From IMG/VR virus record IMGVR_UViG_3300045988_149625: a DNA stretch of 64,000 nucleotides, one strand, 5' to 3'. A program made the position numbers and the translations under genes. Source of the DNA: a virus. Positions within the stretch are counted from its first letter, which is position 1, and each line of letters begins with the position of its first letter. Of the stretch, positions 13,938-49,873 are shown one piece after another. The notes beneath the pieces were generated by a model that was not told the DNA's origin, did no database searches, and was given only the letters and a program-made list of their open reading frames with translations.

Positions 13938-13946
13938 GGTGAGATA

Positions 13947-14552: not shown

Positions 14553-14553
14553 T

Positions 14554-18970: not shown

Positions 18971-19046
18971 AACTAGGTATACGGCTACATGAAGTTGTTA
19001 AGGAACACGAAGTAGTCTTGAATATACTGGGTTGTGGTTGTTAAAA

Positions 19047-19161: not shown

Positions 19162-19416
19162 TACGGAGAGAGCTATTCCTTCGGCTGAACCACAATCCAT
19201 TCTAGCAGAGAAATACTGTATAGAAAAACACACAACAGGAGTATAGAAGGGCTAGTAGTGTAAACGAACGTCATTCTATAAAACTCCGTATCTTTAAATA
19301 AAGGAGAAATAAACTTGAAAAGAATTGGGAATTTATGAACTAAAATTATAGATAAAGAAAATATTAAGGAGAGTATTTTAAGCGCTGCAAAACATAAGAA
19401 AAAGCGCCCTGCGGTA

Positions 19417-34065: not shown

Positions 34066-35803
34066 ATTACATATTGTTCAAGAAGATACCTTAAATGACT
34101 TTTTAAATCTTTTTAAAAAAGCAAAGCAAGTCTTTTGGGACACTGAAACATCTGGGTTAAATGTACGTGCTGTAGGTAAAGATTATACAGTAGGCTTTAC
34201 GTATGCTTTTGATGATACTACATCTAAAGACGTTTTTTACGTTCCTGTAAGACATGTGTTCGAGGGAAAATATGAGGATAATGGCAGATTCTCTTTCTTG
34301 AAGAAATCACAGCTTGAAAAGTTTCCAGATTTTTGCCCAGAAAAATTTGAAGGAACTTATTATAATGTAGATTCTTTTAAGTTTGCAGCAGAGCTTAAAA
34401 CTATTATGGAGCGTGGCGGTAAAGAGTATATCGCACATAATCAAGATTATGATTTACATTTACTAGCTAATGAAGGAATTGATATTTATAAAGTCTTTGA
34501 CGTAAACACTTTTCAAGATACACAAATAATGGTGCATACACTAGATGAGAATGTAGAAAAGAATCTTGAAAGTGTTACTAAGATGATTTTTAAAGTTGAA
34601 AAGTCGCATTATAGTGATACCATTAAAACTGTTACTAAAGAAGAAAAGCTTTCACAGGGTTTAAAGGCTACTAATAATGCAAGCTTTCAGCATGTTCAAA
34701 TTCCAATAGGTGCACAGTATTCAGCAGAGGACGTTTGGTTTATGAAGCAAATGTATCCAATGCTTGAAAAAGGTTTAAAAGAAGATGATTCTTATGACAT
34801 ATATCTTAAATGCCGTATGCCTTTTATGAAAGCCCTTTGGAAAATGGAAAGAAAAGGTGTAAGTGTAGATATTGCTGCCCTGGATAAGATGCAGGAACTT
34901 GCGGAGAAAGAATTAGAAAACTCTAAATATAAAATGTTTTCTTTGGCAGGAGTGGAGTTCAATCCCGATAGTGGACAACATCTTTATGAAATCCTTTTTG
35001 GCTTTAAAAAGAAAGTTATGAGGCTTACTCCAAGCGCACAAAATGCTTTTGAAATGGAAAGTGCTGGATACACTACGACTGAAAAAACTAAGCTTAAAAA
35101 CTTGTATATGAATGAGCCGTCACATGTAATGTTCGTAGAATCTTGCAATAATAATTTAGTAGATGTAAACTTTGGCTTTAAACCAATAGAGTTTACAACA
35201 GGCGGTAAGTATGGCTATGAAGAGTTACAAACGCCGAAAACAGGTGGAGATATTTTAAAAGCATTGTTAAAGCAGAAAAATGTTGATGCAAAAGCGCATG
35301 ATTTTATTACAGAGCTTGTAACTTATAAAAAACTCTCTAAACTTATTAGTGCATTTATGATAGGGTTAAGAGAGAATATTTATAGTGATGGCAAAGTGCA
35401 TTGTAGCTTGAATTTAACAGGAACAGATTCGTGGCGAATTAGTAGTCAGATGCCGAATCTCCAGCAGCTACCGCACCCACTAGAAGAGCCGAAAGCGGGG
35501 GAAGATAGAACCTACTTTGATTTTTGGGAACGGTTTGAAATAAGAAAACTGTTTATAGCCGATGAAGGTTATAGTGTAATAGCTTGCGACTATCATGCTT
35601 TGGAGAAATACTTAACGGCGCATTTGTCACAAGATAAGATGCTTTTAAAGATGTTGAGGGAGAATTTAGACCCGCACGGTACAGTTGCAACTATCGTTTT
35701 TCCAGAACTTGCAAACATGAATCCAAATGACGTAAAGAAGCGTGAGCCTGCTAAAAGGCAAATTGCAAAAAAAATAGGCTTCGCTAAAGGTATGGTGAAG
35801 TAA
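34043..35803 (+). CDS. DNA polymerase I (family A), exon 1: 3'-5' exonuclease plus N-terminal polymerase domain through motif A and start of motif B
   Basis: Exo I VFWDTETSGL. Motif A CDYHALEKYLTAHLSQDKML (DYSQIELR-like). Start of motif B REPAKRQIAK... Frame closes at 35803 inside motif B. Confidence 0.75.
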   Translation: MYHQKYFKLHIVQEDTLNDFLNLFKKAKQVFWDTETSGLNVRAVGKDYTVGFTYAFDDTTSKDVFYVPVRHVFEGKYEDNGRFSFLKKSQLEKFPDFCPEKFEGTYYNVDSFKFAAELKTIMERGGKEYIAHNQDYDLHLLANEGIDIYKVFDVNTFQDTQIMVHTLDENVEKNLESVTKMIFKVEKSHYSDTIKTVTKEEKLSQGLKATNNASFQHVQIPIGAQYSAEDVWFMKQMYPMLEKGLKEDDSYDIYLKCRMPFMKALWKMERKGVSVDIAALDKMQELAEKELENSKYKMFSLAGVEFNPDSGQHLYEILFGFKKKVMRLTPSAQNAFEMESAGYTTTEKTKLKNLYMNEPSHVMFVESCNNNLVDVNFGFKPIEFTTGGKYGYEELQTPKTGGDILKALLKQKNVDAKAHDFITELVTYKKLSKLISAFMIGLRENIYSDGKVHCSLNLTGTDSWRISSQMPNLQQLPHPLEEPKAGEDRTYFDFWERFEIRKLFIADEGYSVIACDYHALEKYLTAHLSQDKMLLKMLRENLDPHGTVATIVFPELANMNPNDVKKREPAKRQIAKKIGFAKGMVK

Positions 35804-36724: not shown

Positions 36725-36736
36725 GAGGTGAAAATA

Positions 36737-37798
36737 GTGGTAGAAATTGATAAATTAGTTAAAGATATTAATAAGAAGTTTGGTACAAATGCAATAAGAT
36801 TGGGACGAAATATTAGAGAGGATATGAATTTTAAAATCCCCTTAGGCAGTGTTGGTTTAAATGACGCATTGGGCGGTGGACTTCCGAGTGGGCGTTATAT
36901 CACACTTGCAGGGCAGGAAAGCAGCGGTAAAAGCTTACTTGCTTATAAAGCTATTGCTGCTGTGCAGAATCTGCGCAAAAAATTGGTTGGGGAAGGTGCA
37001 GATGCCTATGAGGTTGTTGCAGATGATGGTGACACTCCTTTAACCGCAGCACTTATTCAGCTTGAATGTGGTAGTTATTCCCCAGATTGGGGCGAAGTCC
37101 ACGGTATTGACAATGATAGATTAATATTTGTACAGCCAGAGGGTATGGAACAGGCTTTAGACCTTGCCTGTGCTCTCCAACGTGCTGGGGTTGAATTTAT
37201 TGTCATTGATAGTATTGCAGCAATGCTGCCTACTAAAGAGATTGAAACAGACCAAGAGGACACTGTACAAATGGGACTTAGGGCAAAGGCTTTAAATGTT
37301 TTTCATGGCAAGTTTCAAAGTATTAACAACTCCTTAGAAAGAAATGGTAAATTGCCTACTACTTTATTGGCAATTAATCAGTTACGTGAAAAGATTGGTG
37401 CTTATGGTAATCCATTGTACGCACCTGGGGGTAGTAGCCAAAAATTCACCAATGCTATTGAAATTCGTACACGTGTAGGTGATATTATTCGTGAGGGTAC
37501 TGGCGTAAACGCTAGAACCGTGGGAAGGATTATTAAGTGGAAGATTGAGAAAAATAAAACAGGTAAGGCTTTTAGTGACGGAGAATATGACCTTTATGTA
37601 GATGATGCACTACTTCCAAGAGGAAGCATTGATACAGGCAAAGAGTTGGTTATTCTTGCAATGTCTAAAGGCTTGATTGAGCGCCGTGGTGGTTGGTTCT
37701 ATTATAATGGTGAGCAGCTGGGGCAAGGACAGGACAATGTAGTTGCTAAATTAAGAGAGAACCAAGAACTGTTCATGGAGATTGTTGAGAAGTTATAG
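36737..37798 (+). CDS. RecA-like recombinase
   Basis: ALGGGLPSGRYITLAGQESSGKSLLA is the RecA P-loop context. GTG at 36737 with RBS AAGAGGTG; the ORF track uses GTG at 36728. Confidence 0.65.
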   Translation: MVEIDKLVKDINKKFGTNAIRLGRNIREDMNFKIPLGSVGLNDALGGGLPSGRYITLAGQESSGKSLLAYKAIAAVQNLRKKLVGEGADAYEVVADDGDTPLTAALIQLECGSYSPDWGEVHGIDNDRLIFVQPEGMEQALDLACALQRAGVEFIVIDSIAAMLPTKEIETDQEDTVQMGLRAKALNVFHGKFQSINNSLERNGKLPTTLLAINQLREKIGAYGNPLYAPGGSSQKFTNAIEIRTRVGDIIREGTGVNARTVGRIIKWKIEKNKTGKAFSDGEYDLYVDDALLPRGSIDTGKELVILAMSKGLIERRGGWFYYNGEQLGQGQDNVVAKLRENQELFMEIVEKL

Positions 37799-37801
37799 GA
37801 G

Positions 37802-38008
37802 TTGATTAATATTTTTAAGAGGGGATATACTAAAGAATTGGCACAAAGAATAAAAAAGGGTGCTAAATTTATCGCAAGGTGTGAAAGTTGTAAATATTAT
37901 GATGAGTTTAAGAGCTGTACAAATTGTAATGTTACAGAGTTTGACCTTGTTACTGAGGGTGACAGACATTTCTGTCTTTTATGGAGTCCCGAAGATGGTA
38001 CAAACTGA
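37802..38008 (+). CDS. small Cys-rich (zinc-ribbon-like) protein
   Basis: CESCKYYDEFKSCTNCN...HFC. Confidence 0.3.
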   Translation: MINIFKRGYTKELAQRIKKGAKFIARCESCKYYDEFKSCTNCNVTEFDLVTEGDRHFCLLWSPEDGTN

Positions 38009-38480
38009 AAATAAGAAGATGAGTGAAGCCCATGAGAGATTCATTGCAGAATCTCTCAACGGCAAAACCACGATTGCTAGTGGAGCACTTTGGATGGCAA
38101 AATCAGATGTAGTTACTTCCCTTTATCAGATAGAGTGCAAAGCTACTCGGAAAAATTACTATATCTTAAAATCAAAAATTGTAGAGAAGATTAGAGGGGA
38201 GGCATTGAAAAGTGGTAGGATTCCTTTACTCGCTATTCGGTGTTCTCTTGGTGACTTTATACTTTTTAGGGTTTATGATTTCTTTACAGAAATTACGGAA
38301 ACATCTTTAAAGTGTAGTAGCTCTTTAAAGATTACACAGGATATTTTTGAAGGTTTGTTTGAAGGTTTTAGAGAGATTGATGTAAATGGCAATGTTTGGG
38401 GTTTAATAAGATTAACGGATTTTCAATTTTATATAGACGGAGGTACGGATGAAGATAAAAGGAAGCTTAAAAAATATTAA
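37996..38480 (+). CDS. PD-(D/E)XK-family nuclease (possible Holliday-junction resolvase)
   Basis: ...SDVVTSLYQIECKAT... fits D-x(n)-E-x-K. The start is chosen downstream of the overlap with the zinc-ribbon ORF. Confidence 0.35.
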
Positions 38481-39330
38481 TAAAATTTCCAATGATACAG
38501 CGGATAAGTTACTTATTCCTGCTATTGAAGAAACTTTGCGTAATTTAAAAGCAGGTGTTGATAGAGGACATGGTTGGAACAGTCCTAGTAGCGTTGGTTA
38601 TTGTAGTAGAAGTGTTTACTTTGGACGTATAGGTTTACCGCCAGACTTTCCTAGTAACGAACCACGTTTACAGCGAATCTTTGACAATGGTACTTATACA
38701 CATATTCGCTTACAGAATTATCTTCTGCAAAGTGGTGTTCTTTTAGCAGATGAAGCCCCTTTATATGATAAAGCTTATCAAATTATGGGAACAACAGATG
38801 GTTTGCTTTTAGATAAAGATAGGTCTATTGCAGTGCTTGAAATTAAAAGCATTAATTCTATGGGATTTGCGGGGCTTAAAGATGCAAAACCAGAACATAA
38901 GATGCAGGCAAGTATCTACATGTATTGTTTAAATACTATGCGTAATTTAATCTTATTAGGAAAGCGCAAAGAGTTAGAACAAGAGTATCTATATAAACTA
39001 GATTCTTTTTTGGAAGATACTACCTCTTTAGACGGAAAAGTGCATTTCAAAAAGGATAAGGTAAACAGCAGGTTTAAAGATTTTAAGAACACCCTTGACT
39101 TTTTAGAACAATACCCAAAACCTATAAAAAAAGTTATATTTCTTTATGAGAATAAGGATACACAAGAGTTGAAAGAGTTTGCTTATACAGATAAGGCAGC
39201 CACTACTAAAGCTCTTAAAAAGTTCTCGGCTATAAACGACGCTGTTAGGGGGCGAAAAGTTCCAGCAGCAGAAAAGACATTTATGTGTAATGGCTGCCAT
39301 TATAGAAAGGTGTGTGCTAATTATGATTGA
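38449..39330 (+). CDS. Cas4/RecB-like PD-(D/E)XK exonuclease with 4-Cys Fe-S signature
   Basis: DGLLLDKDRSIAVLEIKS (D...ExK) and QASIYMY (QhxxY). Cysteines at GYCSRS (N-terminal) and CNGCHYRKVC (C-terminal). Confidence 0.55.
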   Translation: MKIKGSLKNINKISNDTADKLLIPAIEETLRNLKAGVDRGHGWNSPSSVGYCSRSVYFGRIGLPPDFPSNEPRLQRIFDNGTYTHIRLQNYLLQSGVLLADEAPLYDKAYQIMGTTDGLLLDKDRSIAVLEIKSINSMGFAGLKDAKPEHKMQASIYMYCLNTMRNLILLGKRKELEQEYLYKLDSFLEDTTSLDGKVHFKKDKVNSRFKDFKNTLDFLEQYPKPIKKVIFLYENKDTQELKEFAYTDKAATTKALKKFSAINDAVRGRKVPAAEKTFMCNGCHYRKVCANYD

Positions 39331-39544
39331 AAAGTTACTAGATGTTTTTGCAGTTCTTATTATTTTTCTGACCTTGGTATTAGGTGCATTAGTCTTTATT
39401 TTAAGTTTGATGTATATTGGGGCTTGGGGAGCTTCTTTCTTCACAGGAGTAGCTAATATTGTTTTTTGGGTATTATGGACATTTGTTACAGTAGGTGCTT
39501 TAAATGGTATTTCCACAGTTATCAGTAAAAGAGTTTCTAATTAG
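39290..39544 (+). CDS. small membrane protein (two transmembrane segments)
   Basis: 84 aa, mostly hydrophobic. Confidence 0.3.
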   Translation: MAAIIERCVLIMIEKLLDVFAVLIIFLTLVLGALVFILSLMYIGAWGASFFTGVANIVFWVLWTFVTVGALNGISTVISKRVSN

Positions 39545-40022
39545 TCTGTTGGTTTTAGCCCTATTTGGGGGATGTGTATATTTCTACACACACCCCAAAA
39601 TAAAAGAGGTTGAAAAGGTTAGAGAGAAGCCAGTAATACATGAGGTTGTACAAAAAGAAACGATTAATACAATCACTGCAAAAGAGAAAGTCAGCCCTAA
39701 AGACGCAGACTTGGTTGTAAATACTAAAGATACAGTAAAGGTCAGTATTAATGGTAAAGAGGCAGAAATTAAGCCAAAAACAAGTTCTAAATATGAGTAT
39801 GGTAAAGATTATTTAGAATTTAATCAGAAGAGTATTTATACTTTAGATGTAAAGACTAAAGCTCTTGAACCTGCGTGGGGGGTAGGTATGGGATACACAA
39901 GTAATAACAAACCTGCGGGATTTTTTCAAGTACGTGTAAAGAAAACACCTGCTCATGTATGGGTAATGTCAGACGGAAAGACACATGCCGCAGGTGTAAT
40001 GTTCAGCACGAATTATCATTAA
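39504..40022 (+). CDS. hypothetical protein with N-terminal transmembrane/signal anchor
   Basis: 172-aa ORF. Confidence 0.3.
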   Translation: MVFPQLSVKEFLISLLVLALFGGCVYFYTHPKIKEVEKVREKPVIHEVVQKETINTITAKEKVSPKDADLVVNTKDTVKVSINGKEAEIKPKTSSKYEYGKDYLEFNQKSIYTLDVKTKALEPAWGVGMGYTSNNKPAGFFQVRVKKTPAHVWVMSDGKTHAAGVMFSTNYH

Positions 40023-40037
40023 GGAGGATACTCAAAT

Positions 40038-40517
40038 ATGGAAACAAATTTAGATAGAATTAAAGAATTTTTAAAAGAAACAGGGGTAAACACTTTTGAC
40101 AATCAGAATGTAGATGCAGAGTATTTAAAACTTCCTAAAGATTTAACAGAATTGCCTACTAATGAGATTAGCAAATACTTAAATGCAATTACGCAGCAGA
40201 GAATGTATGTACGTACCTTAGCAAGTCAGGCTAGAGCAATTTATAGGGAAGCAAAGTCCGCATATGATAGAGAAAAATGTAGAGTTTTCTCGCTTGCTCC
40301 AGCAAAGATGAGTGTTACAGAAAAAGAACTGCGTGTTTATCAAGATGAGCAGGCAAGTGAGATTCGTGCAACTATGGAGTATTCCTTAGAACGCTTTGAC
40401 TTTTTAAAAGACATTATGGATAGCTTGGACGATGGCACTTTCCTTGTAAGTAGGGAACTTACACGTCGTTTAAAAGATTTTGACGATAATAGTAGAAATG
40501 GGCGATTTAATGCGTAA
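40038..40517 (+). CDS. hypothetical protein
   Basis: 159 aa. RBS aaggaggatactcaaatATG. Confidence 0.3.
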   Translation: METNLDRIKEFLKETGVNTFDNQNVDAEYLKLPKDLTELPTNEISKYLNAITQQRMYVRTLASQARAIYREAKSAYDREKCRVFSLAPAKMSVTEKELRVYQDEQASEIRATMEYSLERFDFLKDIMDSLDDGTFLVSRELTRRLKDFDDNSRNGRFNA

Positions 40518-41031
40518 CAGTGATTTATTAAGAGATAAAATTGCTTTCCTTGAAGAACACGCTCCGCAGAGTGAAGAAATTGCGCTTTTAAAAAAGAAAT
40601 TAGGATATAGTAAGAGGGGAAGAAGTTCCAAAACAAAAGGTGCTACTTATGAACGTAAGATAGTAAAGTTTTTAAAGGAACAATTCCCTGCCCTAACTTT
40701 TGGGCGCACACCTTCAAGCGGCGGGTATAAAAAAGAATTAGAAAGCAATACATTGCGTGGTGACGTTGTGTGTTTAGATGATAATGTAGATTTTGCACTT
40801 CATTTAGAGCTTAAAAATAGGAAAGCGGGTTGGAAAGTAGTGCAAGATTGGTTTAAGCAGGCAGAGGATGATTGTATTAAAGGTAAATACCCTTGCTTAG
40901 TTATGCACCAATCACAAGAAAAGGGAAAATATAGGTCAGAGGACTTTATTATGTTGAAACTGAAAGACTTTTTTAATCTTGTGGATAAAAAACTTTTAGT
41001 AAGGGGTATTGACAAAACAAGAATTTTGTGA
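40498..41031 (+). CDS. VRR-NUC domain nuclease
   Basis: KGATYERKIVKFL...GRTPSSGGYKK...GDVVCLDD...LELKNR matches the VRR-NUC pattern (PD-(D/E)XK). Start chosen at ATG 40498. Confidence 0.5.
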   Translation: MGDLMRNSDLLRDKIAFLEEHAPQSEEIALLKKKLGYSKRGRSSKTKGATYERKIVKFLKEQFPALTFGRTPSSGGYKKELESNTLRGDVVCLDDNVDFALHLELKNRKAGWKVVQDWFKQAEDDCIKGKYPCLVMHQSQEKGKYRSEDFIMLKLKDFFNLVDKKLLVRGIDKTRIL

Positions 41032-41038
41032 TATAATA
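41009..41038 (+). promoter_or_regulatory. sigma-70-like promoter upstream of spoVS-like gene
   Basis: ttgaca at 41009-41014 and tgtgatataat ending at 41038. Confidence 0.45.
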
Positions 41039-41129
41039 ATAAAGTAGAACTATAATTGAATAATTACGGCTATAATCTTAGAAAAATCATTGTATAAACG
41101 TGTAGAAATTATGGGAAGGAATTTTAGTT

Positions 41130-41411
41130 ATGAAGGAAGTAATTTTCAGAGTAAGCAGCATTAGCAATGTTAAAAAGCTTGCAGGAAGTATTGCACACAC
41201 TGTAAAAGGTGACGGAGAAACCGTAGCAGCAAATGTTGTGCTGAATTGCTGTGGTGCATCAGCAGTGAGTCAAGCAGTTAAAGCAGTTGCAGTTGCTCGT
41301 GGATTTCTAGCCTCTAATGGTAGGGATTTGGTTGTAAGACCTGGGTTCGATACCGCTTTTATAGAGGGTGAAGAAAGAACAGTTATCAAACTTTTTATAA
41401 GTTTGAATTGA
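41130..41411 (+). CDS. spoVS: SpoVS (stage V sporulation protein S) homologue
   Basis: ...SQAVKAVAVARGFLASNGRDLVVRPGFDTAFIEGEERTVIKL... versus B. subtilis SpoVS ...NQAVKAVAIARGFVAPSGVDLICIPAFTDIQIDGEERTAIKL.... Confidence 0.75.
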   Translation: MKEVIFRVSSISNVKKLAGSIAHTVKGDGETVAANVVLNCCGASAVSQAVKAVAVARGFLASNGRDLVVRPGFDTAFIEGEERTVIKLFISLN

Positions 41412-41414
41412 TTA

Positions 41415-41441
41415 TAGCCCCTATATAGGGGCTATTTTTAT
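41415..41441 (+). terminator. rho-independent terminator after spoVS-like gene
   Basis: tagcccct-atat-aggggcta then tttta. Confidence 0.55.
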
Positions 41442-41454
41442 TAGGAGGAGTCAG

Positions 41455-41853
41455 ATGTACAATAATTTTTTTACTACTGTACGTGGTGGTTCAAGGTATG
41501 TAATTTTAATAGGAAATCTTGCTATTAAATTCCCATACCTACGTTTTCCATATCACGGACGTAAGCAAAACTTGAAGGAGTGGGAATACAGGAATAAAAG
41601 CAAGTATTTAGCTAAATTATATATTTCATTCCCTTTTGGTTGGTGCAATGTAATGGAGAGGGTGCAGCCCTTAGCTAAGTCTTTAAGCAGTGTGGATTGC
41701 ACCAATTTGATAAGAGCTTATTTTAAGAATAAAGTTACAGGTGATGAGCTTGCTTTTTTATTGGAGGATAGCACCTTGGAAAACTTTGGTACTAAAAACG
41801 GTAGGATAGTTAAGCTTGACTGGGGAGGTTTTGGGCGAAGTGAAAGTATGTGA
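41455..41853 (+). CDS. hypothetical protein
   Basis: 132 aa. RBS ggaggagtcagATG. Confidence 0.3.
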   Translation: MYNNFFTTVRGGSRYVILIGNLAIKFPYLRFPYHGRKQNLKEWEYRNKSKYLAKLYISFPFGWCNVMERVQPLAKSLSSVDCTNLIRAYFKNKVTGDELAFLLEDSTLENFGTKNGRIVKLDWGGFGRSESM

Positions 41854-42400
41854 AATTTATTCGGCTTTACAGGGGGAGGGCAGGTATACAGGATATGCAA
41901 CGACTTTTATACAAGAGCCTATTGATTTAGCCAAAGGCACAGATTGGTCAATAGATAGGATTCTCTCAAAAGTAAATAAATTAGGGAACAGGCATGTTTG
42001 TATAAAAGGTGAAACGCTTTTGCAGGAAGATAGTTATACACTTGTATATGAGTTGTTAGCCTACTCATATATTGTAACTATGGAAACGTCTTGTAGAATC
42101 CCTTTAGAAGATTGTTTATATGACAGAACTTATGCTTACAATGTAATTATAAACTGTGCTAATGAAAATATCTTAAATAATTTAAGATTATTGCACAGTA
42201 ATGATGAAGTTAAATTCGTAATAAAAGATGATTCTGATTTTGATTATGTAAAGAAAGCTTTAAAGAAATACCCAACGTCTGCTATGGTTACACTTTATCC
42301 TTTTAAAAATGATTTAAATATCTTTAAAAAAATAGAAGATTTCTTAATGAAAAACCGTTTAAATGCAAGAGCAGGTTTAAAGTTACATAAATTGATTTAG
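41816..42400 (+). CDS. QueE-like (7-carboxy-7-deazaguanine synthase family) protein lacking the radical-SAM cysteine triad
   Basis: N-terminal EIYSALQGEGRYTGYATTFIQ (QueE EIFxSIQGEG...FIR) and RHVCIKGETLLQ (QueE HVVxTGGEPLLQ). No CxxxCxxC between them. TTG start. Confidence 0.4.
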   Translation: MTGEVLGEVKVCEIYSALQGEGRYTGYATTFIQEPIDLAKGTDWSIDRILSKVNKLGNRHVCIKGETLLQEDSYTLVYELLAYSYIVTMETSCRIPLEDCLYDRTYAYNVIINCANENILNNLRLLHSNDEVKFVIKDDSDFDYVKKALKKYPTSAMVTLYPFKNDLNIFKKIEDFLMKNRLNARAGLKLHKLI

Positions 42401-42407
42401 AAAAGTG

Positions 42408-42436
42408 TTGACAATACCTTTAAGGTGTGCTATAAT
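42408..42436 (+). promoter_or_regulatory. sigma-70-like promoter
   Basis: ttgaca at 42408-42413 and tgctataat ending at 42436. Confidence 0.45.
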
Positions 42437-42457
42437 ATACACATAAGGAGGTAGGTT

Positions 42458-42856
42458 ATGGAATACACTAAAGAAAACGTAGTAAAAATTGTAGAAGATT
42501 TTAAAGACCTAATTTTAGCCATTGAAATGGAACGCAGAATCCGTTATGATGCTGTACATGAGAATGATTGCGCTTTAGGGGATATTCGACATTTTTGTGA
42601 GCTGGAATATCCTACGGAGCGCAGTATGCGCACTAAAATTTGTCAATTAATGCGTGATATCAGCAAGAAAAGGCGTGAGGACAAAGACTTCTTAGATGTC
42701 ACACAGCCTTTGGCAGAATTTCTTTCTGGCTCACCTAATTTAAAGGTAAATTTAGGCAAAACAACTAATAACATGAAAAAAGCGTTGGTTAAAACACAGG
42801 GGGAACGTGTTTACGTTCCCAGAGTGCTTAATGATTTATTTAAAAAGGAGATTTAA
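42458..42856 (+). CDS. hypothetical protein
   Basis: 132 aa. RBS aaggaggtaggttATG. Confidence 0.3.
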   Translation: MEYTKENVVKIVEDFKDLILAIEMERRIRYDAVHENDCALGDIRHFCELEYPTERSMRTKICQLMRDISKKRREDKDFLDVTQPLAEFLSGSPNLKVNLGKTTNNMKKALVKTQGERVYVPRVLNDLFKKEI

Positions 42857-42980
42857 AAATGCAAAAAAGATTACACACTAAAAATTGGAACACTAAACCT
42901 AAAAATAGAGAATTACCCGCTATTTTTCAAGCTTTTAATCTAAGACAGTTTCAGAAAGCATTTATCGGAGGTTCTAAAAA

Positions 42981-43328
42981 TTGTTAATTACCAATATTAA
43001 AATTTATGGACTAGAAGAATCCATTTATGCAAGTGGGTATCCAATGCTTTCAAAACCACCTACTAAAGAAGAGTTTGAGAGTGGGGTATCTGATGTAACA
43101 ACGAATATTTTTATGCGTGAAACTGTAGGAGCAAAAGCAGCAGGTGCACATATTAAAAGGGCTTTAAAGCTTGGCAGTGCAGCCGCAGGAACTGGGCACA
43201 ATAACTTTTTAAAGGGAATTATTGTGCAAATGGATGTTAATGCACCGCAGTATTGGTGGCAACAGGCACAGCGTTATCACTGGTTCGATTTCGTTAGCTC
43301 GAAGGGCGTTTTAGTAGGTAACTATTAA
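42981..43328 (+). CDS. ThyX-like (flavin-dependent thymidylate synthase fold) protein, exon 1; divergent (RHR motif replaced)
   Basis: ...GHNNFLKGIIVQMDVNAPQYWWQQAQRYHWFDFVSS... versus ThyX ...[35 protein letters not shown].... Frame closes just before an intron-like structured region. Confidence 0.35.
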   Translation: MLITNIKIYGLEESIYASGYPMLSKPPTKEEFESGVSDVTTNIFMRETVGAKAAGAHIKRALKLGSAAAGTGHNNFLKGIIVQMDVNAPQYWWQQAQRYHWFDFVSSKGVLVGNY

Positions 43329-43329
43329 A

Positions 43330-43685
43330 ATTATGAATTGGTGAACCTAGAAATCTAGGGTGTGCGACTTATGTCGTGCTAACGGTAAGAGTTAAATAAG
43401 ACTGGGAATATGACAATTATTCTCTTTAGCCATAGGCGAATACGCTCTCTAAGAGAAGCTAAGGACTTTCGTAAGTTAGCTTGCTAATACCGTGCTAAGT
43501 TTTTCTATTCTCATGTAATTTGAGAATAGATTAAAAAGTGTAACGACTAACCGAAGTATTAACATACTTCAAGAGGTTTAAGGTGAAATTCCTTATTCCG
43601 TAGCGCCAATTACCCTATAAGGGTAAAGAGATAGTCTAATCCCACTATTAAATTAGTGTTAAAGTACGCCGAAAGGCGGGGTAGA
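43330..43685 (+). mobile_element. ORF-less group I intron (IA-like); boundaries approximate
   Basis: R element gtgtaacgactaacc (P7 5'). P7.1 hairpin gaagtat-taac-atacttc. P8 hairpin taccct-ata-agggta. J8/7 plus P7 3' aagagatagtct (S element). P9-like cgcc-gaaa-ggcg (GNRA loop). About 330 bp without an ORF between two halves of one reading frame. Confidence 0.5.
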
Positions 43686-44000
43686 AATGCAATGAGTAAG
43701 GTACATTGCCTTACAAAAATGGATATTGACAGTATGTGTGACAGCACTGTAACGGAAACAGCGAAGCTCAATTTAGTTGGGGCAATTCAAGATTACACTG
43801 AGGGCAAGATTGACTTTGACACTATGATGTGTAATGTTCCTATGGGATTGCATTTAACTGCAAGAATGACAACAAATTATTTGCAGCTTAAAACGATGTA
43901 TGCACAAAGACAGCATCACAAATCTAAAGAGTGGCAGGAGTTCTGTAAGTGGGTAACATATTTACCTATGAGCTATTTAATTACAGGAGGTACTATGTAA
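43686..44000 (+). CDS. ThyX-like protein, exon 2 (putative)
   Basis: Frame open from 43635. Continues NAMSKVHCLTKMD...; exons 1 and 2 together give about 218 aa, a small-ThyX length. Confidence 0.3.
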   Translation, partial: NAMSKVHCLTKMDIDSMCDSTVTETAKLNLVGAIQDYTEGKIDFDTMMCNVPMGLHLTARMTTNYLQLKTMYAQRQHHKSKEWQEFCKWVTYLPMSYLITGGTM

Positions 44001-44317
44001 TGAGTAATTCTAAGGAGTTTATACAATTTCAAAAGGATTACATCTTGTTTCCTTGGGGAGAGCAAGAAGTTATTGGGTATTTTAAATGCCCCGTTTGTGG
44101 TAAGCCAATTTATGTTTTAGAGTTTTTTGGCGGTGAGGAAGAGCACTATTACTATCTTTATCATTTTAATTCTTGGGATGATAAGAAATTATGTCCTATT
44201 GCGCAGGATGACTGTTCCACACCTTTCACTATCCTAGGTGGTATTACCTACGATAATTTTGAAGAAATTGTAGATACATGGGCGTATGGTATCCGTACAG
44301 TGGAGTGTACAGAATGA
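44000..44317 (+). CDS. Cys-rich small protein (zinc-finger-like)
   Basis: RBS aggagg then an ATG at 44000 overlapping the upstream stop (TAATG). CPVCGKP...C. Confidence 0.35.
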   Translation: MSNSKEFIQFQKDYILFPWGEQEVIGYFKCPVCGKPIYVLEFFGGEEEHYYYLYHFNSWDDKKLCPIAQDDCSTPFTILGGITYDNFEEIVDTWAYGIRTVECTE

Positions 44318-44727
44318 TTTATGCAATAGATTTTGATGGTACGCTAGTTAAAAATCAATATCCCTATATAGGGGAAGAGCAAAAGATTTCTACACACATG
44401 CTTGACAAGACAAAAATTGAGAAGTTTATTCCTGCCACAGACTTTTGCAAGGAATTGCAACGTGAGGGACATAAACTTATTTTGTGGACTTGCAGAGAGG
44501 GTGAGCTTTTACAAGAGGCATTACGCTGGTGCCTTTATAGAGGGTTAATCTTTGATGCAGTAAATGATGATTTGCCACAAGTAAAGCAATGTTTTCCAGA
44601 TGAACTTAAATCGTGGGAAGGTTCAGAACGTGCAAGAAAAATCCATGCAGATGTGTATATTGATGATAAAGCAGTTGTACCGATTTGTGAGGATAAAGAT
44701 AAAAATGTACGTTATCGCGAGTTTTGA
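44314..44727 (+). CDS. HAD-superfamily phosphatase/hydrolase
   Basis: MIYAIDFDGTLVK is the HAD motif I (DxDGT). RBS ggagtg. Confidence 0.5.
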   Translation: MIYAIDFDGTLVKNQYPYIGEEQKISTHMLDKTKIEKFIPATDFCKELQREGHKLILWTCREGELLQEALRWCLYRGLIFDAVNDDLPQVKQCFPDELKSWEGSERARKIHADVYIDDKAVVPICEDKDKNVRYREF

Positions 44728-45016
44728 AAATTTTAAAGGAACAAGTTATCATGTGCTAGATGTTTTATCTTTTCATTTTAATGGTTCTAAAGGAACTTGC
44801 GTTATCGTGGGGGGTATTCCCCCCATTTTAGAACCATTTTTAAAGGATTGGGCAGATAAGAATGATATACATTTAGTACAGTGTACTAAAGACGATTTTA
44901 AAGACTTAGATATGCTTTTTGGAGATATTTCAGTCATTATCTTTGGCATGAACACATTTCTTCTAAAGAAAAGTTTAGAATTAAGTCTTAGATATTATAT
45001 TATAAAAGAGGAATAA
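44705..45016 (+). CDS. hypothetical protein
   Basis: 103 aa from the ATG at 44705. Confidence 0.3.
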   Translation: MYVIASFENFKGTSYHVLDVLSFHFNGSKGTCVIVGGIPPILEPFLKDWADKNDIHLVQCTKDDFKDLDMLFGDISVIIFGMNTFLLKKSLELSLRYYIIKEE

Positions 45017-45017
45017 A

Positions 45018-45614
45018 ATGACTAATATTATATGTATGAGTGGCGGTTATGACAGTACCGTACTTTATGATTATCTGAAAAAAGATGAACATTTAGATTT
45101 AAAGGTTTACCATGCGCTTTATACTAAAGTTGAAGGTGGCACATATAATTTAAATGAGTTTAAACGTCTTTCACAAAAGTTTAATAATGAAATAGATTAT
45201 TTAGCGCACTTTAACTTACATTTATTAGGTGAGGATTACATTCCGAACAGAAACACTCTATTTGTAATGGATATCATTGCAAAGCTTTATGTTGGAGAGC
45301 CTTTAAATATTTACCTGGGAATTATTAAGAATTTTCCTAGATACCCAGACTGTACACATGAATGGTTGGAGGCTCTTAATTCATTTTTAAGCATTGAATT
45401 TCCAAATGTTAAAGTTTTAGCACCCTTTATAGACCTTACAAAAGACGATGTTTTCAAGATTGGATGCAAGCTTGGCGTAAAATTAGAGGATACTTTTTCA
45501 TGTAACTTTTCTGATAATGGTGAGCCTTGCGGTGTTTGTGAGAATTGTAAATGGCGCGCAGCGCATATGTACCCTAGTTATTTTTTGAAGGAGGGGAATG
45601 AAATTGGCAAATAA
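45018..45614 (+). CDS. queC: QueC-like 7-cyano-7-deazaguanine synthase
   Basis: PP-loop ICMSGGYDST and a C-terminal Zn-binding Cys cluster (CNFSDNGEPCGVCENCKW). Confidence 0.6.
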   Translation: MTNIICMSGGYDSTVLYDYLKKDEHLDLKVYHALYTKVEGGTYNLNEFKRLSQKFNNEIDYLAHFNLHLLGEDYIPNRNTLFVMDIIAKLYVGEPLNIYLGIIKNFPRYPDCTHEWLEALNSFLSIEFPNVKVLAPFIDLTKDDVFKIGCKLGVKLEDTFSCNFSDNGEPCGVCENCKWRAAHMYPSYFLKEGNEIGK

Positions 45615-45822
45615 ATCTAATTCGGAGAAGAAAAATTCTGTTCCGCAGATTAAAATTGCAGCAAGAAGTGTTGAAAAGACTAAAGGTGGATTTTTAAGTA
45701 TTAAGCAGGGAAGAACAGGCGACACAAATAACTTACAGACTAATCCATATTATAGATTTATGAATAGAACTTCTTGGAAAACTAAGAATAAAAAAGGCAT
45801 TACACCTTGGGGGCGTATTTAA
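45598..45822 (+). CDS. hypothetical small basic protein
   Basis: 74-aa ORF. Confidence 0.25.
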   Translation: MKLANKSNSEKKNSVPQIKIAARSVEKTKGGFLSIKQGRTGDTNNLQTNPYYRFMNRTSWKTKNKKGITPWGRI

Positions 45823-47717
45823 AAATGAAAGGTGATTTTACGCTTTTATTATCTGGTGTTGAGCCTAAGGAAAACTGGGAAGTAGCATCTTCTGTAACAA
45901 AGAATGTGCTACTTTCCTATAAGTATATTCGTAAACGTGGATTAGATGAAATTGTAAAGCGTTTAAAGTCCCATAGGGGAATGAAAGTTTTAATTGATAG
46001 TGGTGCTTATACATTCTTTAATGATAAAGAGTTTAATAATAAGACTATTGAATGGTGGGAAGATTATTTAGTAAAGTATATTAACTTTATACGTGAGTAC
46101 CGTGACTATATCTTTGCCTGCGTGGAACTAGATATTGATAGTATTGTTGGCGAGGATATTGTAGAAGGTTGGCGTGAAAAGTATTTCTACCCATTAGAAA
46201 GAGAAGGAATAAATGTTATTTATCTTTATCATTTAGATAAAGATTTATCGCATTTTGAAAAGCTTTGTAAGCAGCATCCTTATGTTGGATTTTCGTACAT
46301 GGAGATAAAGCATACTATTGAGGATATGGGGGAAAGAGAAAATCTCATTTCACAACTATTCCAAATAGCTAAAAGGTATAAATCTGCTATTCATGGTTTT
46401 GCAATTACAGGTAATAAGCTACTATTGAGTTATCCATTCTTTTCCGCAGATTCTACTACGTATTTAACAGGTGCGCAATTTGGTACAATTACCTACTTTG
46501 AAGCAGGTCAAATGAAGCATCTTGAAAAAACACAGTGGAAAACAGAATATATGGAAAAACTAAAGGCGTTGGGGTTAAAGGAGAAATTGCTTGAAATAGA
46601 ATCTCCTTATGAGCTTATAAGAGCAAATGCCATTAGCTATAAGAAATTTGAAGAATACGTTAAAAATGTTATGCGGCCACAAAAATATTGGGAAGCACGT
46701 TCAAACACTAAATACTCTATTCCAGATGCATCATGGTTTGAAGGGGATATGCAAGATTGGCAGGAACGCTTAGAACTAGCAGGAATTGATACAAACATTC
46801 CTCAAACAGCGGGTGAAACAATTTTACATGATGCTTATATTTTTCTAAATGAGCCTAAAGAAGCCAAGAATTATGAACTTGACGACCTTGTGGGTTTATG
46901 TGCAATGTTTGGTGCAACAGGTGCAAACTATAATACAAAAGATAAGTGTATAAAGTTTTTGCAGGAAGCTTTCAAAGAACATGTTGACGGTATGCGAAAC
47001 GAGTTGTCAAATTTGCAGAATCCAGAAGAGGGGCAGCGTATAGCACTTGAACGTGAGGACTATATTACAGAGAAAGAGTATTTAGAGGTTGAAATGAGTA
47101 GGGAAGAATGTGGAGAACTTCTACCTGCATTATTAACTTCTGGATATGATAAAGATGATGTTGAAAAATCTTTAATAGAACAAGGTATTAAACCAATCTA
47201 TGATAAAAATGGTAATATCTTAAAAGGTATCAAAAAGGTTAAGCGACAGAAAAAGCTTTCCACAAGGGCTTTGCCTAGACTTTCTTGTGATAGATGCGTA
47301 ATGGCAGCAAACTGTACAGAGTACCAAGCAGGATATATTTGTGCATACGATAAAATGTTCCGCAGATTTAACACCAGGGAACAAGAAGATGTTATACAGG
47401 GAATGACAGCTATTGCTGATTTAGCAATAGAACGTGCTCAAAAAGCCTTTATGCTTGAAACAGCTATGGGTGGGACACCTACAAAGGCTACTTCACAGGC
47501 AATGCAGGATGCTTTTGGATATTTAACTAAGTTAAAAGAATTGCAAGATGAAGTAAAAGGACGACCAGTTATGGTTTCACAAACAAAAATCAAGGGCGGC
47601 AGTATCGAACAAACTGTTGTTCATGGTGCTAATCCTCAATCTGGCGGCATTTTAGAGCGAATTTTTATGGAAGATACAGACGATGAAAAAACAGTAGAAG
47701 CGGAGGTAGTTAAATGA
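45807..47717 (+). CDS. DpdA/TGT-like (tRNA-guanine transglycosylase superfamily) protein, putative DNA 7-deazaguanine transglycosylase
   Basis: VLIDSGAYTF resembles TGT LTDSGGFQ. C-terminal Cys cluster (SCDRC...NC...C). Lies next to the QueC and QueE-like genes. 636 aa. Confidence 0.4.
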   Translation: MGAYLKMKGDFTLLLSGVEPKENWEVASSVTKNVLLSYKYIRKRGLDEIVKRLKSHRGMKVLIDSGAYTFFNDKEFNNKTIEWWEDYLVKYINFIREYRDYIFACVELDIDSIVGEDIVEGWREKYFYPLEREGINVIYLYHLDKDLSHFEKLCKQHPYVGFSYMEIKHTIEDMGERENLISQLFQIAKRYKSAIHGFAITGNKLLLSYPFFSADSTTYLTGAQFGTITYFEAGQMKHLEKTQWKTEYMEKLKALGLKEKLLEIESPYELIRANAISYKKFEEYVKNVMRPQKYWEARSNTKYSIPDASWFEGDMQDWQERLELAGIDTNIPQTAGETILHDAYIFLNEPKEAKNYELDDLVGLCAMFGATGANYNTKDKCIKFLQEAFKEHVDGMRNELSNLQNPEEGQRIALEREDYITEKEYLEVEMSREECGELLPALLTSGYDKDDVEKSLIEQGIKPIYDKNGNILKGIKKVKRQKKLSTRALPRLSCDRCVMAANCTEYQAGYICAYDKMFRRFNTREQEDVIQGMTAIADLAIERAQKAFMLETAMGGTPTKATSQAMQDAFGYLTKLKELQDEVKGRPVMVSQTKIKGGSIEQTVVHGANPQSGGILERIFMEDTDDEKTVEAEVVK

Positions 47718-49873
47718 GAAAATTAGCAAGTGTAGAAATTATAGATAAATTAGAGCCTATCCCAAATGCTGATAGAATTTTAAAAGCAACTGTAAAAGGT
47801 TGGGAATGTGTTGTAAGTAAGAGTGACAACTTTCAGCAAGGCGATAAAGTAGTGTATATTGAAGTAGATTCTGTTCTCCCTGCAAGACCAGAATTTGCCT
47901 TCCTTAAAGACAGAAAGTACCGCATTAAGACTATTAAGTTGCGTAAACAGATTTCACAAGGTTTGATTCTGCCTTTAAGTTACTTGCCAAACAAAGAATA
48001 CGCTGTTGGGGAAGATGTAACTAAAATATTGAATATTAAGAAATTTGACCCGCAGCTTGAAGCAGAGAATAAAATCATGGCAGTTGCTGCCCCAAAAGGA
48101 AGATTCACATTCTTATGGAAGCCTTTAATGCGTTTCCGTTGGTTTAGACGCTTATATGCAAAATTCCATGTACAGAATGAAAAGTTCCCTACTTACATTG
48201 CAAGCAAGACTGATGAAGAACGCTGGCAGAATATTACTGACAAGCTTGAACAATGGAGAGATACAAATGTCCCCCTGATTTGTACAGAGAAGGTCGACGG
48301 CTGCCATTCATACAGAAGTAGTGTAATTACAAATAAGGGGTTCTTGCCAATAGGTAAAATTGTAAATGAAAAACTTGATGTGGAAGTTCTTACTTATAAT
48401 GAAGAATCCAAATGTTGTGAGTTTAAACCTATTATAGATTATCATAAAATCTTATGTACAAAGCCTACATACCGCATTGGTGTAGGAAGTCGTGGTAAGG
48501 GAAATAAGCCTAAATATATTGAGTGTACCTCTAACCATGAATTTTTAACACAAGACGGCTGGAAGCAAGCGGATGAGCTTACTTTAGATGATACTCTAAT
48601 GCACTATTTTTCTGTTATTAACTATGATATTCAAAGTATTATCTTAGGCTGCTTACTAGGGGATAGCAGCATTAATGGCAATAGAAAAGGTACATCTTAC
48701 TTAACTGTACTGTTTGGGCACTCTGAAAAACAAGTAGAATATTTTAATTATAAGAAGCAGCTTTTTGGAAATCTTTTTATTGAACAAAAGGATACTTTAA
48801 GTGGATATGGCAGTGTAATTAAACATGGTATTTTACGTTCCAATGAGGGTGTTCGTAGACTTATTGAGGAGTATTGTTTGGTAGATGATAAATTTGCGGT
48901 AACACAAAAATATTGCGATGCTTTAACACCTATGTCATTGGCATTTTGGTATATGGACGACGGAAGCCTTTTAACAGGTACTTTACGACCAAAAGCAATT
49001 TTAAATACGCAAGCATATGATTTAAATACTATCAAAATGCTTGTAGAAACCTTACGTAACCGCTTTGGTTTAGAGGCATTTATTGGAGATAAAGAAGTTT
49101 ATAAAGGATACGTTATTTATTTCTCTGTGGAATCTACCCTTAAATTTGCACAATTAATTGCCCCCTATGTATGCGAAAGTATGAGATATAAATTACCAGA
49201 ACAGTATAGAAGTTATGGATGTGCTTTAAATAGTGTAAATACAGAAGTGCAAGATATTTTACCCACAAAAATTCTCTCCATTGAAGAGTTTGAAGCAGGT
49301 CATTTTGGCAAGCATATGTATGATTTAACTATTCAAGATAATCATAATTATTTTGTACATAGTATTTTAACTCATAATTGTTCCTCAACCTTCTTTTTAG
49401 ACGGCGGCACTTTTGGGGTTTGCAGTAGAAATATTTGGCTACGTAAGGAAGATAATTCGCCCTATTGGGAAATTGCAAGACGCTTTCAGATTGAGGAAGC
49501 TTTAAAGGAGATTCAAAAGTGCTTTGGTTTTAGAAAAATTGTTTTACAAGGTGAGATTATTGGGCAAAATATCCAAGCTAATAAATATAAGATTAGCGGG
49601 TATGATTTTTATGCCTATAATTTAATCCTTGACGGCATTAAAGTTTCACAAGTAAAAATGGAAGAGCTTCTTAAAGAATTTCGCATTAAAACAGTGCCTG
49701 TAGTTTATAAGCATATCAATGTGCCAAGTGACTTACAGACCTTAAACAATCTTGCGAGTGGTAAAAGTGTATTACTTGATACACAAGAGCGTGAAGGTAT
49801 CGTTTGCAGAAATTATGAGCAGGGGATTTCTTTTAAAGCGATTTCCCCAACTTTCTTGCTAAAAGAAGAATAA
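47714..49873 (+). CDS. RNA ligase (N-terminal tRNA-binding-like OB domain plus nucleotidyltransferase domain, Rnl5/DraRnl-like) interrupted by an intein
   Basis: N-terminus SVEII...PNADRIL...VGDKVVYIEVDSVLP is tRNA-binding-domain-like. Motif I TEKVDG is followed immediately by the intein Cys. C-extein has EGIVCRN (motif IV). Confidence 0.6.
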   Translation: MRKLASVEIIDKLEPIPNADRILKATVKGWECVVSKSDNFQQGDKVVYIEVDSVLPARPEFAFLKDRKYRIKTIKLRKQISQGLILPLSYLPNKEYAVGEDVTKILNIKKFDPQLEAENKIMAVAAPKGRFTFLWKPLMRFRWFRRLYAKFHVQNEKFPTYIASKTDEERWQNITDKLEQWRDTNVPLICTEKVDGCHSYRSSVITNKGFLPIGKIVNEKLDVEVLTYNEESKCCEFKPIIDYHKILCTKPTYRIGVGSRGKGNKPKYIECTSNHEFLTQDGWKQADELTLDDTLMHYFSVINYDIQSIILGCLLGDSSINGNRKGTSYLTVLFGHSEKQVEYFNYKKQLFGNLFIEQKDTLSGYGSVIKHGILRSNEGVRRLIEEYCLVDDKFAVTQKYCDALTPMSLAFWYMDDGSLLTGTLRPKAILNTQAYDLNTIKMLVETLRNRFGLEAFIGDKEVYKGYVIYFSVESTLKFAQLIAPYVCESMRYKLPEQYRSYGCALNSVNTEVQDILPTKILSIEEFEAGHFGKHMYDLTIQDNHNYFVHSILTHNCSSTFFLDGGTFGVCSRNIWLRKEDNSPYWEIARRFQIEEALKEIQKCFGFRKIVLQGEIIGQNIQANKYKISGYDFYAYNLILDGIKVSQVKMEELLKEFRIKTVPVVYKHINVPSDLQTLNNLASGKSVLLDTQEREGIVCRNYEQGISFKAISPTFLLKEE
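48302..49378 (+). mobile_element. intein (359 aa) with LAGLIDADG homing-endonuclease domain, inserted after ligase motif I (KVDG|C...HN|C)
   Basis: Starts at Cys197 right after KVDG and ends ...SILTHN before the +1 Cys. LAGLIDADG-type blocks ILGCLLGDSSI and LAFWYMDDGSL. In-frame, length is a multiple of 3. Confidence 0.7.

Follow-up and report, generated by a model that had tools for sequence, protein, structure and literature searches.

A SpoVS-family protein encoded beside a resolvase-type nuclease gene in a tailed phage, and its possible role as an accessory of the recombination module

We analyzed a 64,000-nucleotide stretch of viral DNA (IMG/VR record IMGVR_UViG_3300045988_149625; hereafter, the window), which carries at positions 41130–41411 on the plus strand a gene, from ATG start to TGA stop, for a 93-residue protein of the SpoVS family with an Alba-superfamily fold. 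The protein is a true SpoVS-family member of a phage. On balance, and with modest confidence, we consider it to be a nucleic-acid-binding accessory protein of the phage replication–recombination module. In the favored reading of its history, the gene is long-standing and vertically inherited in a broad group of tailed phages that resemble Bacillus cereus phage BCD7. A first-pass annotation, made from the letters of the same DNA, had recognized the SpoVS homologue and gone on to propose a spore-forming host and a phage that manipulates sporulation. The recognition of the homologue is borne out, but the two proposals built on it are unsupported.

The 93-residue protein matches the Pfam SpoVS profile PF04232 at 83.8 bits, compared with a gathering score of 24 (expectation value (E) 7e-24), and the match spans profile positions 2–82 of 83 (81/83). 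It also belongs to PHROG 35646, ‘sporulation protein’ (2.2e-22). BLASTP against Bacillus subtilis SpoVS, whose sequence was confirmed as SP5S_BACSU (P45693) by exact look-up, gave 45% identity across residues 5–90 (E 7e-21), and the Thermus SpoVS sequence in the Protein Data Bank (2eh1) was matched at E 5e-14. The open reading frame (ORF) has exactly the coordinates of the first-pass annotation, the homology runs along its length, the profile match proposed there as a check is strong, and the conserved core quoted there is retained (AVKAVAVARGF...DL...P.F...I.GEERTVIKL). The family motifs (N/S)QAVKAxAxARG and GEERT appear as SQAVKAVAVARG and GEERT, and residues G42, Q48, A49, K51 and F73 are invariant in 45 homologues. 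The NCBIfam search returned no SpoVS model, only a weak unrelated match, and the Pfam search gave no match to the Alba family. The coding sequence is under purifying selection, with a ratio of nonsynonymous to synonymous substitution rates of 0.04–0.18 and, in close strains, 5–7 synonymous versus 0–1 nonsynonymous changes. The identical 93-residue protein is present on 742 public contigs.

Longer versions of the protein were discarded. A 114-residue form (P0001) uses an upstream ATG that arose in strains L006/L007 through a C-to-T substitution and a 1-nucleotide deletion, and is excluded in the window by an in-frame TAA at 41073. Many 132-residue sequences in the protein’s 90% cluster are in fact encoded by the downstream gene 41455–41853, a clustering artefact that perhaps stems from a fused gene call.

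The AlphaFold2 model of the protein (mean predicted local distance difference test score 91.8) has a β-α-β-α-β-β topology. Foldseek ranked SpoVS structures first (2eh1, 2ek0 and 9a7h_B; template modeling (TM) score 0.81–0.88), with Alba, Pop6/Pop7 and Rpp20/Rpp25 next (E 1e-4 to 1e-3, TM score 0.5–0.67). The closest solved structure is the SpoVS-related protein of Thermus thermophilus (2EH1/2EK0), at a root-mean-square deviation of 2.1–2.3 Å from the model. This protein is 41–42% identical to the window protein, lacks the insertion described below and shows the family at work in a non-sporulating organism. Alba/Sso10b, Pop6/Pop7 and Rpp20/Rpp25 share the fold and are small and basic, but have only 10–23% sequence identity to the window protein. 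Known Alba-superfamily members bind DNA or RNA as dimers, many of them RNA, as in the RNase P/MRP subunits (PMC11621453). SpoVS has been predicted to bind nucleic acid from its Alba fold, and the family has been noted in non-sporulating phyla (PMC2732212, PMC11621453, PMC5167688). The top Foldseek match, 9a7h, is itself of note as an ‘Integrative model of YUND-SP5S’, which pairs B. subtilis SpoVS with YunD from in-cell cross-linking. It may be the sole physical-interaction evidence for canonical SpoVS, and the main text of its two source papers is silent on it.

Directly upstream of the SpoVS-like gene in the window, at 40480–41031, lies the gene for a predicted Holliday-junction resolvase-type nuclease, assigned to PHROG 244 (‘RusA-like’, 2e-21). 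Its product is 46% identical to BCD7 gp034, and PF24608 (PDDEXK_15) matches its orthologues in the related contigs L001–L006. The close homologues of the SpoVS-like protein (71–81% identity) all come from metagenomic contigs of 45–107 kb. The gene order in these close relatives is DnaB, primase, PolA, RecA-like, Cas4/PDDEXK, PDDEXK_15 nuclease, SpoVS, QueD, a further gene (x), QueE, QueC, DpdA-like and RNA ligase. The run from resolvase (phrog_244/PDDEXK_15) through SpoVS to Que genes is common to the window, L001–L005 and BCD7, and the window and BCD7 have eight homologous genes in colinear order.

Among cultured phages, BCD7 alone matches the window PolA (30% identity) and DpdA (33%) over their full length. 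Its gp031 (‘putative stage V sporulation protein S’; NC_019515 / JN712910; PHROG 35646) is about 90 residues long, scores 71.9 bits against the Pfam profile, is basic (isoelectric point (pI) 9.8), and has the GRDLVVRPGF motif and C-terminal SLN of the window protein. It stands in the same slot, with a Cas4-like nuclease, a RusA-like/PDDEXK_15 resolvase, QueD/E/C and DpdA. The likeness has limits, as gp031 is only 44–47% identical to the window protein, is without the 5-residue insertion of the window clade (GDGETVAANVV region) and is separated from the resolvase by two small ORFs. The two genomes are very distant, as the PolA identity indicates, and gp031 was not recovered as sister of the window protein in the tree.

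A scan of IMG/VR with the family alignment yielded 80 loci; three from earlier searches bring the set to 83. These loci fall into 17 sequence clusters with guanine-plus-cytosine (GC) contents of 27–65%. In local tblastn searches, the colinear module of PolA, UvsX-like, resolvase, Cas4-like, UvsY-like and SpoVS-like genes was found in 8 of the 17 clusters, accounting for about 72 of the 83 loci. The eight are clusters 0 (56 loci), 2, 5, 10, 12 and 16 together with those of the window clade and of BCD7 (GC 32–65%). SpoVS is followed by Que genes in L001–L005, BCD7, L053/L057, L114 and Bacteroides phage BS162P1, the last of which also has the module and is colinear with the window through Cas4-like, UvsY-like, HNH endonuclease, SpoVS-like, QueC-like, DpdA and QueE genes. 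In most lineages a resolvase gene adjoins SpoVS upstream, and two unrelated PHROG families fill this place: the window, L119 and L053/L057 have phrog_244 (PDDEXK_15), and L115 (cluster 0), L123 and Streptomyces phage BRock (gp52) have the RuvC-like phrog_159. The module role is favored because the slot is fixed and broad and because the adjacency survives the swap to an unrelated resolvase family.

A census of the three neighbors on either side in 14 further viral clusters gave recurrent families of recombination, replication and nucleotide metabolism, namely Cas4 exonuclease, a DnaD-like loader, RecT, RuvC-like resolvase, RecE/YqaJ, PurZ, QueD/E, deoxynucleoside monophosphate kinase and ThyX. 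No sporulation family was present among the 25 families listed per library. The few host-like matches (YmdB, NusB and ribosomal protein S6) presumably mark prophage edges. The layout of 41130–41411, a single gene with its own promoter and terminator, is that of a moron, or auxiliary host-derived gene. The patchy distribution and close likeness to a host gene that mark a recent acquisition were not observed: every related contig that was examined has the gene in this slot, as do BCD7, BS162P1 and another six IMG/VR clusters, and the best bacterial match is 48% identical.

In the mechanism that we propose, host sigma-A RNA polymerase would transcribe the SpoVS-like gene from its consensus extended −10 promoter, and a strong, probably leaky terminator would keep the transcript abundant relative to those of the downstream Que genes. 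The small, basic and probably dimeric protein would then bind nucleic acid, with branched or duplex DNA of the phage as the likeliest target. It would have an accessory or architectural role beside the recombinase, the mediator, the Cas4-like nuclease and the Holliday-junction resolvase, at the stage of recombination-dependent replication and concatemer processing. Handling of 7-deazaguanine-modified DNA is a possible further role. A protein acting in this manner would not be a sporulation-specific device. High expression, nucleic-acid binding and the partnership with resolvase and recombination proteins are steps that we infer rather than observe.

Several points weigh against this assignment. 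Nucleic-acid binding in the SpoVS family is a fold-based prediction only. Reports of SpoVS within Firmicutes are confined to spore formers (PMC2732212), and B. cereus is the host of BCD7, the closest cultured relative. Monophyly of the window protein with that of BCD7 has a bootstrap value of 0.03–0.08, and one module-type protein (L114) is acidic (pI 5.3). Several viral SpoVS genes lie elsewhere, near an endolysin gene or a rolling-circle Rep gene. An early or DNA-metabolism position also suits host-takeover genes and so is no guide by itself, and the promoter–gene–terminator layout is classical moron anatomy. Finally, the lineages with the module are related by descent, and their adjacencies cannot be counted as independent events.

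The window protein shares with canonical B. subtilis SpoVS the Pfam family, the fold, 45% identity over the whole domain and the motifs xQAVKAVAxARGF and GEERTxIKL. The canonical protein is chromosomally encoded and neutral to acidic, whereas the window protein is basic, carries an insertion, and is expressed from a sigma-A consensus promoter within a phage recombination module. Canonical SpoVS forms one 90%-identity cluster of 2,676 members, including Bacillus, Sporomusaceae, Pelotomaculum, Thermoanaerobacter and Natroniella, and is at least 90% identical across Firmicutes classes (Bacilli, Clostridia and Negativicutes). The window protein falls far from this level of orthologue conservation, with 43–45% identity to SpoVS of B. 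subtilis, Pelotomaculum, Sporomusaceae, Natroniella and Thermoanaerobacter. It is 35–49% identical to every bacterial or phage homologue outside its own clade and about equally close to proteins of Thermotogae, Chloroflexota and Clostridia. In B. subtilis, spoVS lies in the recA–rny–ymdB region and is sigma-H dependent. This canonical chromosomal context is absent here, the window gene lying between the resolvase and the Que genes; YmdB neighbors spoVS in one host-like IMG/VR locus. Judged by sequence, the window gene does not appear to be a copy of a host gene. Recent capture from a host was likewise rejected, with nothing above 48% identity in a scan of genome contigs that was peptide-pattern-based and hence biased, most of its matches sharing QAVKAVAV.

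Charge differs as well. Module-type phage SpoVS proteins other than that of L114 are basic, with pI values of 9.1–10.6, as compared to 5.0–6.6 for canonical SpoVS. The window protein has a net charge of +3 over its 93 residues, and of +4 with a pI of 9.5 for the aligned 88-residue core. A neighbor-joining tree (88 columns, 300 bootstraps) resolved only the window clade (0.91), which carries the 5-residue insertion, and the canonical clade (0.87). The tree was set aside as proof of a single origin of the phage copies, its deep nodes being unsupported. Because of this, common ancestry of the window and BCD7 proteins rests on synteny and on the shared GRDLVVRPGF and C-terminal SLN motifs. One 1.8-kb contig from the European Nucleotide Archive encodes a protein (P0008) whose N-terminal 57 residues are identical to the window protein and whose C-terminal part is canonical-like, either an assembly chimera or a natural recombinant.

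Cultured phages were searched with two distant SpoVS variants as queries, and the SpoVS-like genes found all exceed the Pfam threshold, at 52–129 bits. The carriers are five Streptomyces phages (BRock, LuckySocke, Alone3, GiJojo and pSt2308), phage BS162P1, isolated on Bacteroides salyersiae, Lysinibacillus and Bacillus phages, and Stenotrophomonas phage TS-12. The SpoVS-like gene occurs in the same module in phages of hosts that make no endospores, namely B. salyersiae and Streptomyces. TS-12 (L127, MW302330) was discounted as a case of a non-sporulating host, as its locus has 34% GC, compared to about 66% for the genus Stenotrophomonas, and the host label is doubtful. Its SpoVS gene, at 129 bits, is the most canonical-like phage copy.

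In the window phage, consensus extended −10 promoters, together with Shine–Dalgarno motifs before 69% of ORFs, fit a Firmicutes-type host. Its single-domain M15 endolysin is 69% identical to the lysin of a Phascolarctobacterium faecium prophage (on contigs up to 944 kb), and its DUF4376 protein is 47% identical to the counterpart in that prophage. The endolysin weakly points toward non-sporulating gut Negativicutes. The hint is weak because only these two proteins match, no other window protein finding a counterpart in the prophage, and because GC differs (36% versus 43–48%). P. faecium is a non-sporulating diderm Negativicute. In non-sporulating Negativicutes even Spo0A is missing (bioRxiv 2022.02.25.481979). 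Host prediction, which the first-pass annotation had named as a check, gives conflicting hints, with the endolysin leaning weakly to non-sporulating Negativicutes and the BCD7 host, B. cereus, leaning to a spore former. The claim that the gene implies a spore-forming host lacks support given the Bacteroides and Streptomyces phages with the same slot, contigs of up to 65% GC and the endolysin hint.

We weighed three other explanations for the gene. That an early SpoVS mimic blocks, promotes or re-times host sporulation, or aids entry into spores, is in our judgment improbable. The idea draws on the family name, given for a B. subtilis stage V phenotype, on the confinement of SpoVS to spore formers within Firmicutes (PMC2732212), on the retained canonical core motifs and on the moron-like pairing of a strong sigma-A promoter with a terminator. 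It is also in keeping with the B. cereus host of BCD7, the SpoVS genes of Lysinibacillus and Bacillus phages and the interpretation of viral spoVS as a sporulation auxiliary metabolic gene in viromes (PMC8940887). However, it leaves unexplained the same slot in Bacteroides and Streptomyces phages and in the high-GC contigs. Faithful mimicry is unlikely at 43–45% identity when canonical orthologues share at least 90%, and the charge differs (pI 9.5 versus about 6). The suggestion of the first-pass annotation that the phage may manipulate sporulation is further weakened by the rest of the window, where no other sporulation-related family was found among 62 further non-structural ORFs and no full-length sigma factor was found, only a 96-residue protein with region 4 alone. 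The weak endolysin link to Phascolarctobacterium-like Negativicutes, with their Spo0A-lacking non-sporulating members, argues in the same direction. The sporulation-type sigma factors of Bacillus phages offer a parallel, in that a phage carries a homologue of a host developmental gene. Those factors are host-like and belong to phages of spore formers, however, whereas the SpoVS-like gene is also found in Bacteroides and Streptomyces phages.

It is unlikely, though less so, that the SpoVS-like protein is a regulator that binds specific DNA or RNA sites and reprograms phage expression, for instance at an early-to-middle switch, or host expression, without any part in recombination. A role for SpoVS as a DNA-binding transcriptional regulator was put forward by Rigden and Galperin, and expression that depends on sigma-K and sigma-D is altered by B. 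subtilis spoVS mutations (PMC2732212). RNA is the ligand of many proteins in the Alba superfamily, for example the RNase P/MRP subunits (PMC11621453). The early-type host promoter of the gene is compatible with such a function, and the many consensus promoters of the phage would need temporal control. A pure regulator, on the other hand, would have no reason to stay beside two unrelated resolvase families across distant phages. A conserved candidate operator or repeated motif was not noticed, in analyses that included no search aimed at one. The least probable of the explanations is a partner in base modification, which would help DpdA/Que or PurZ-type enzymes act on DNA, or would coat or recognize modified DNA. 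At least five lineages have Que genes downstream of SpoVS: the window clade, BCD7, L053/L057, L114 (with a QueE-like gene directly downstream) and BS162P1 (with its QueC-like, DpdA and QueE genes). DpdA is about 1.2 kb from the SpoVS-like gene in MT835482, and in the unrelated gut phage MT835471 SpoVS comes two genes after a PurZ-like enzyme. However, the 7 kb around the SpoVS-like gene of BRock show no Que or DpdA gene, and most of the 56 cluster-0 loci show none in their 6-kb flanks. Most DpdA phages (83 records) have no SpoVS match, with only about 16 records carrying a SpoVS-like gene, and the association may merely reflect the shared ancestry of one module. As for MT835471 (L047), an 89-kb human gut phage, the region in question is 12899–15255 and the enzyme is matched by phrog_1211 at 7e-131; PurZ belongs to the 2-aminoadenine pathway, a second base-modification type near a phage SpoVS gene.

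The preferred reading, an accessory of the recombination module, could extend beyond this group of phages. We hold only tentatively, and with more doubt than belief, that SpoVS-like proteins are an unrecognized and widely conserved accessory of phage recombination modules, found in phages of Firmicutes, Bacteroidota and Actinobacteria beside resolvases whose folds are unrelated, and mirrored by a bacterial recA–spoVS linkage that extends to non-sporulating phyla. Among bacterial loci, recA lies upstream of spoVS in 6 of 31 (36 were searched, counting five host-like IMG/VR loci). The two genes are directly adjacent in a metagenome-assembled genome of a non-sporulating member of the Acidimicrobiia, and the linkage is also seen in Chloroflexota and Saccharibacteria. 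If the generalization were true, the molecular role sought for the whole SpoVS family since 1995 would be that of an Alba-like factor that works on recombination or branched-DNA intermediates, and the B. subtilis sporulation phenotype would be a downstream consequence.

Phage SpoVS genes have already been annotated, in BCD7, in PHROG 35646 and in several Bacillus and Lysinibacillus phages, and viral spoVS has been reported as an auxiliary metabolic gene of viromes (PMC8940887). Our literature search found no paper linking SpoVS to resolvases or to deazaguanine clusters in phages. The parts worth following are the conserved resolvase pairing and the presence of the gene in phages whose hosts form no endospores. 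Viral ‘sporulation’ genes are routinely read as auxiliaries that steer dormancy, and spoVS has been cited in this way in soil and marine viromes. For SpoVS this reading is unsafe, as the family name reflects one mutant phenotype and the phage copies form their own basic-protein lineages inside recombination and DNA-modification modules. The resolvase pairing provides a concrete handle on the biochemistry of the family, and cultured systems exist in BCD7 with B. cereus, BRock with Streptomyces and BS162P1 with Bacteroides.

The expression signals of the gene are all on the plus strand. A sigma-A-type promoter at 41009–41037 consists of a −35 box TTGACA (41009–41014), a 17-nucleotide spacer that ends in TG (41029–41030) and a −10 box TATAAT (41032–41037), matching the consensus at 12 of 12 positions in addition to the TG extension. 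The first-pass annotation had placed its end at 41038, one nucleotide too far. Equivalent promoters precede the SpoVS-like gene in L001/L003 (TGGACA-17-TGnTATAAT) and in L005 (a perfect TTGACA-17-TGnTATAAT, spaced differently from the start codon). Perfect TTGACA-N16-18-TATAAT sites number 16 in the window, all on the plus strand, versus 0.08 expected. They range from 2747 to 63051, are nearly all TG-extended and are densest among the small, functionally unassigned ORFs at 49.9–63 kb. A Shine–Dalgarno sequence, GGGAAGGA, was read at 41113–41120, 9 nucleotides before the ATG, and similar motifs precede 74 of the 107 window ORFs (69%), compared to a background of 19%. The 5′ untranslated region of about 90 nucleotides folds weakly (−8.6 kcal/mol) and is not conserved in L005. 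Rfam at gathering thresholds gave no match in the window, and hence no known riboswitch or leader in this region.

An intrinsic terminator follows at 41414–41443, formed by a 9-bp GC-rich stem (ATAGCCCCT/AGGGGCTAT) with a 4-nucleotide loop (41414–41435) and then TTTTTATT, with a folding energy of −16.4 kcal/mol. It is conserved, with loop changes, in L001, L003, L005, L006 and L007, and the L005 stem has one compensatory change from G:C to C:G. The terminator that the first-pass annotation had placed at 41415–41441 is real. That annotation’s description of a stand-alone unit in the early region was right as to the gene’s own promoter and terminator and its place in the replication and recombination region, but the unit is not fully self-contained. 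The upstream gene 40480–41031 takes in the −35 box at its 3′ end, and no terminator was found between that gene and the promoter. The gene beyond the terminator starts 20 nucleotides past it. The next two genes (41455–42400) probably depend on read-through, because no perfect-consensus promoter lies ahead of 42408. The terminator is probably leaky, attenuating transcription rather than ending it.

The recombination block upstream of SpoVS extends over 36728–40517 on the plus strand and was assigned from PHROG matches. It comprises a UvsX/RecA-like recombinase (36728–37798), a resolvase of phrog_2002 (37860–38480), a Cas4-like PD-(D/E)XK exonuclease (38449–39330) and a UvsY-like mediator with a weak match (40038–40517), and two small ORFs also lie in the block. 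Downstream on the same strand, a 7-deazaguanine DNA-modification block (41455–47717) was assigned with PHROG, Pfam and tblastn using the BCD7 Que proteins. It begins with a gene of phrog_4301, of unknown function (41455–41853; PHROG match), followed by QueE-like (41816–42400), QueC (45018–45614) and DpdA/TGT-like (45807–47717) genes. An intron-interrupted ThyX-like gene sits among the Que genes. Searches of the 64-kb window detected neither QueD nor FolE (GTP cyclohydrolase I); in the related contigs L001–L005, QueD comes directly after SpoVS.

By its gene content, the window derives from a tailed phage. All substantial ORFs are on the plus strand, GC is about 36% and no tRNA genes are present. 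PHROG and Pfam matches identify structural and lysis genes (tape measure, tail fiber, an Mtd-type tail protein with a reverse transcriptase, and the M15 endolysin) and replication genes (helicases, DnaB, primase and PolA); RNA ligase and ArdA genes are also present. A search of 50,697 phage records found no relatives at the DNA level except for a 37-nucleotide match inside the ThyX intron. One 99-kb IMG/VR contig is 97.8% identical over 16 kb of the window.

Other observations concern mobile and retroelement-like features. A diversity-generating retroelement (17036–20709) includes a tail protein with an Mtd second domain (17036–18970), a 123-nucleotide variable repeat at the 3′ end of that gene (18830–18952), a template repeat (19046–19168) and a reverse transcriptase (19417–20709). 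The repeats are 79% identical by repeat scan and 89% by pairwise alignment, and the copies differ almost only at template A positions. Directly upstream of the target gene, in the tail block, is a gene for a 407-residue radical-SAM / 4Fe-4S protein (15812–17035). An insertion of about 390 nucleotides at approximately 43300–43690, which the sister contig L041 lacks, divides the ThyX-like gene (phrog_6721; 42981–44000) into two ORFs. Against the full Rfam group I intron model RF00028, the segment 43358–43657 scores 41.5 bits (E 3e-9), below the gathering score of 50. The 37 nucleotides inside the insertion are shared with Clostridium phage c-st and are the region’s only DNA match to phage records.

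The RNA ligase ORF (47714–49873; 719 residues) holds a LAGLIDADG homing-endonuclease segment at residues 308–497. This segment is probably an intein or an inserted endonuclease, because the orthologues in L001–L005 are shorter (354–361 residues) and lack it. Inteins or LAGLIDADG insertions likewise occur in PolA and ThyX of related contigs, and the window PolA looks split, into 34043–35803 and a further ORF with a DNA_pol_A fragment. The 96-residue protein mentioned above (22224–22511) has only a sigma-70 region-4-like helix-turn-helix (Sigma70_r4_2, E 1.2e-4). It is encoded between the tail and retroelement genes and the lysis genes, and may be a late-gene regulator.

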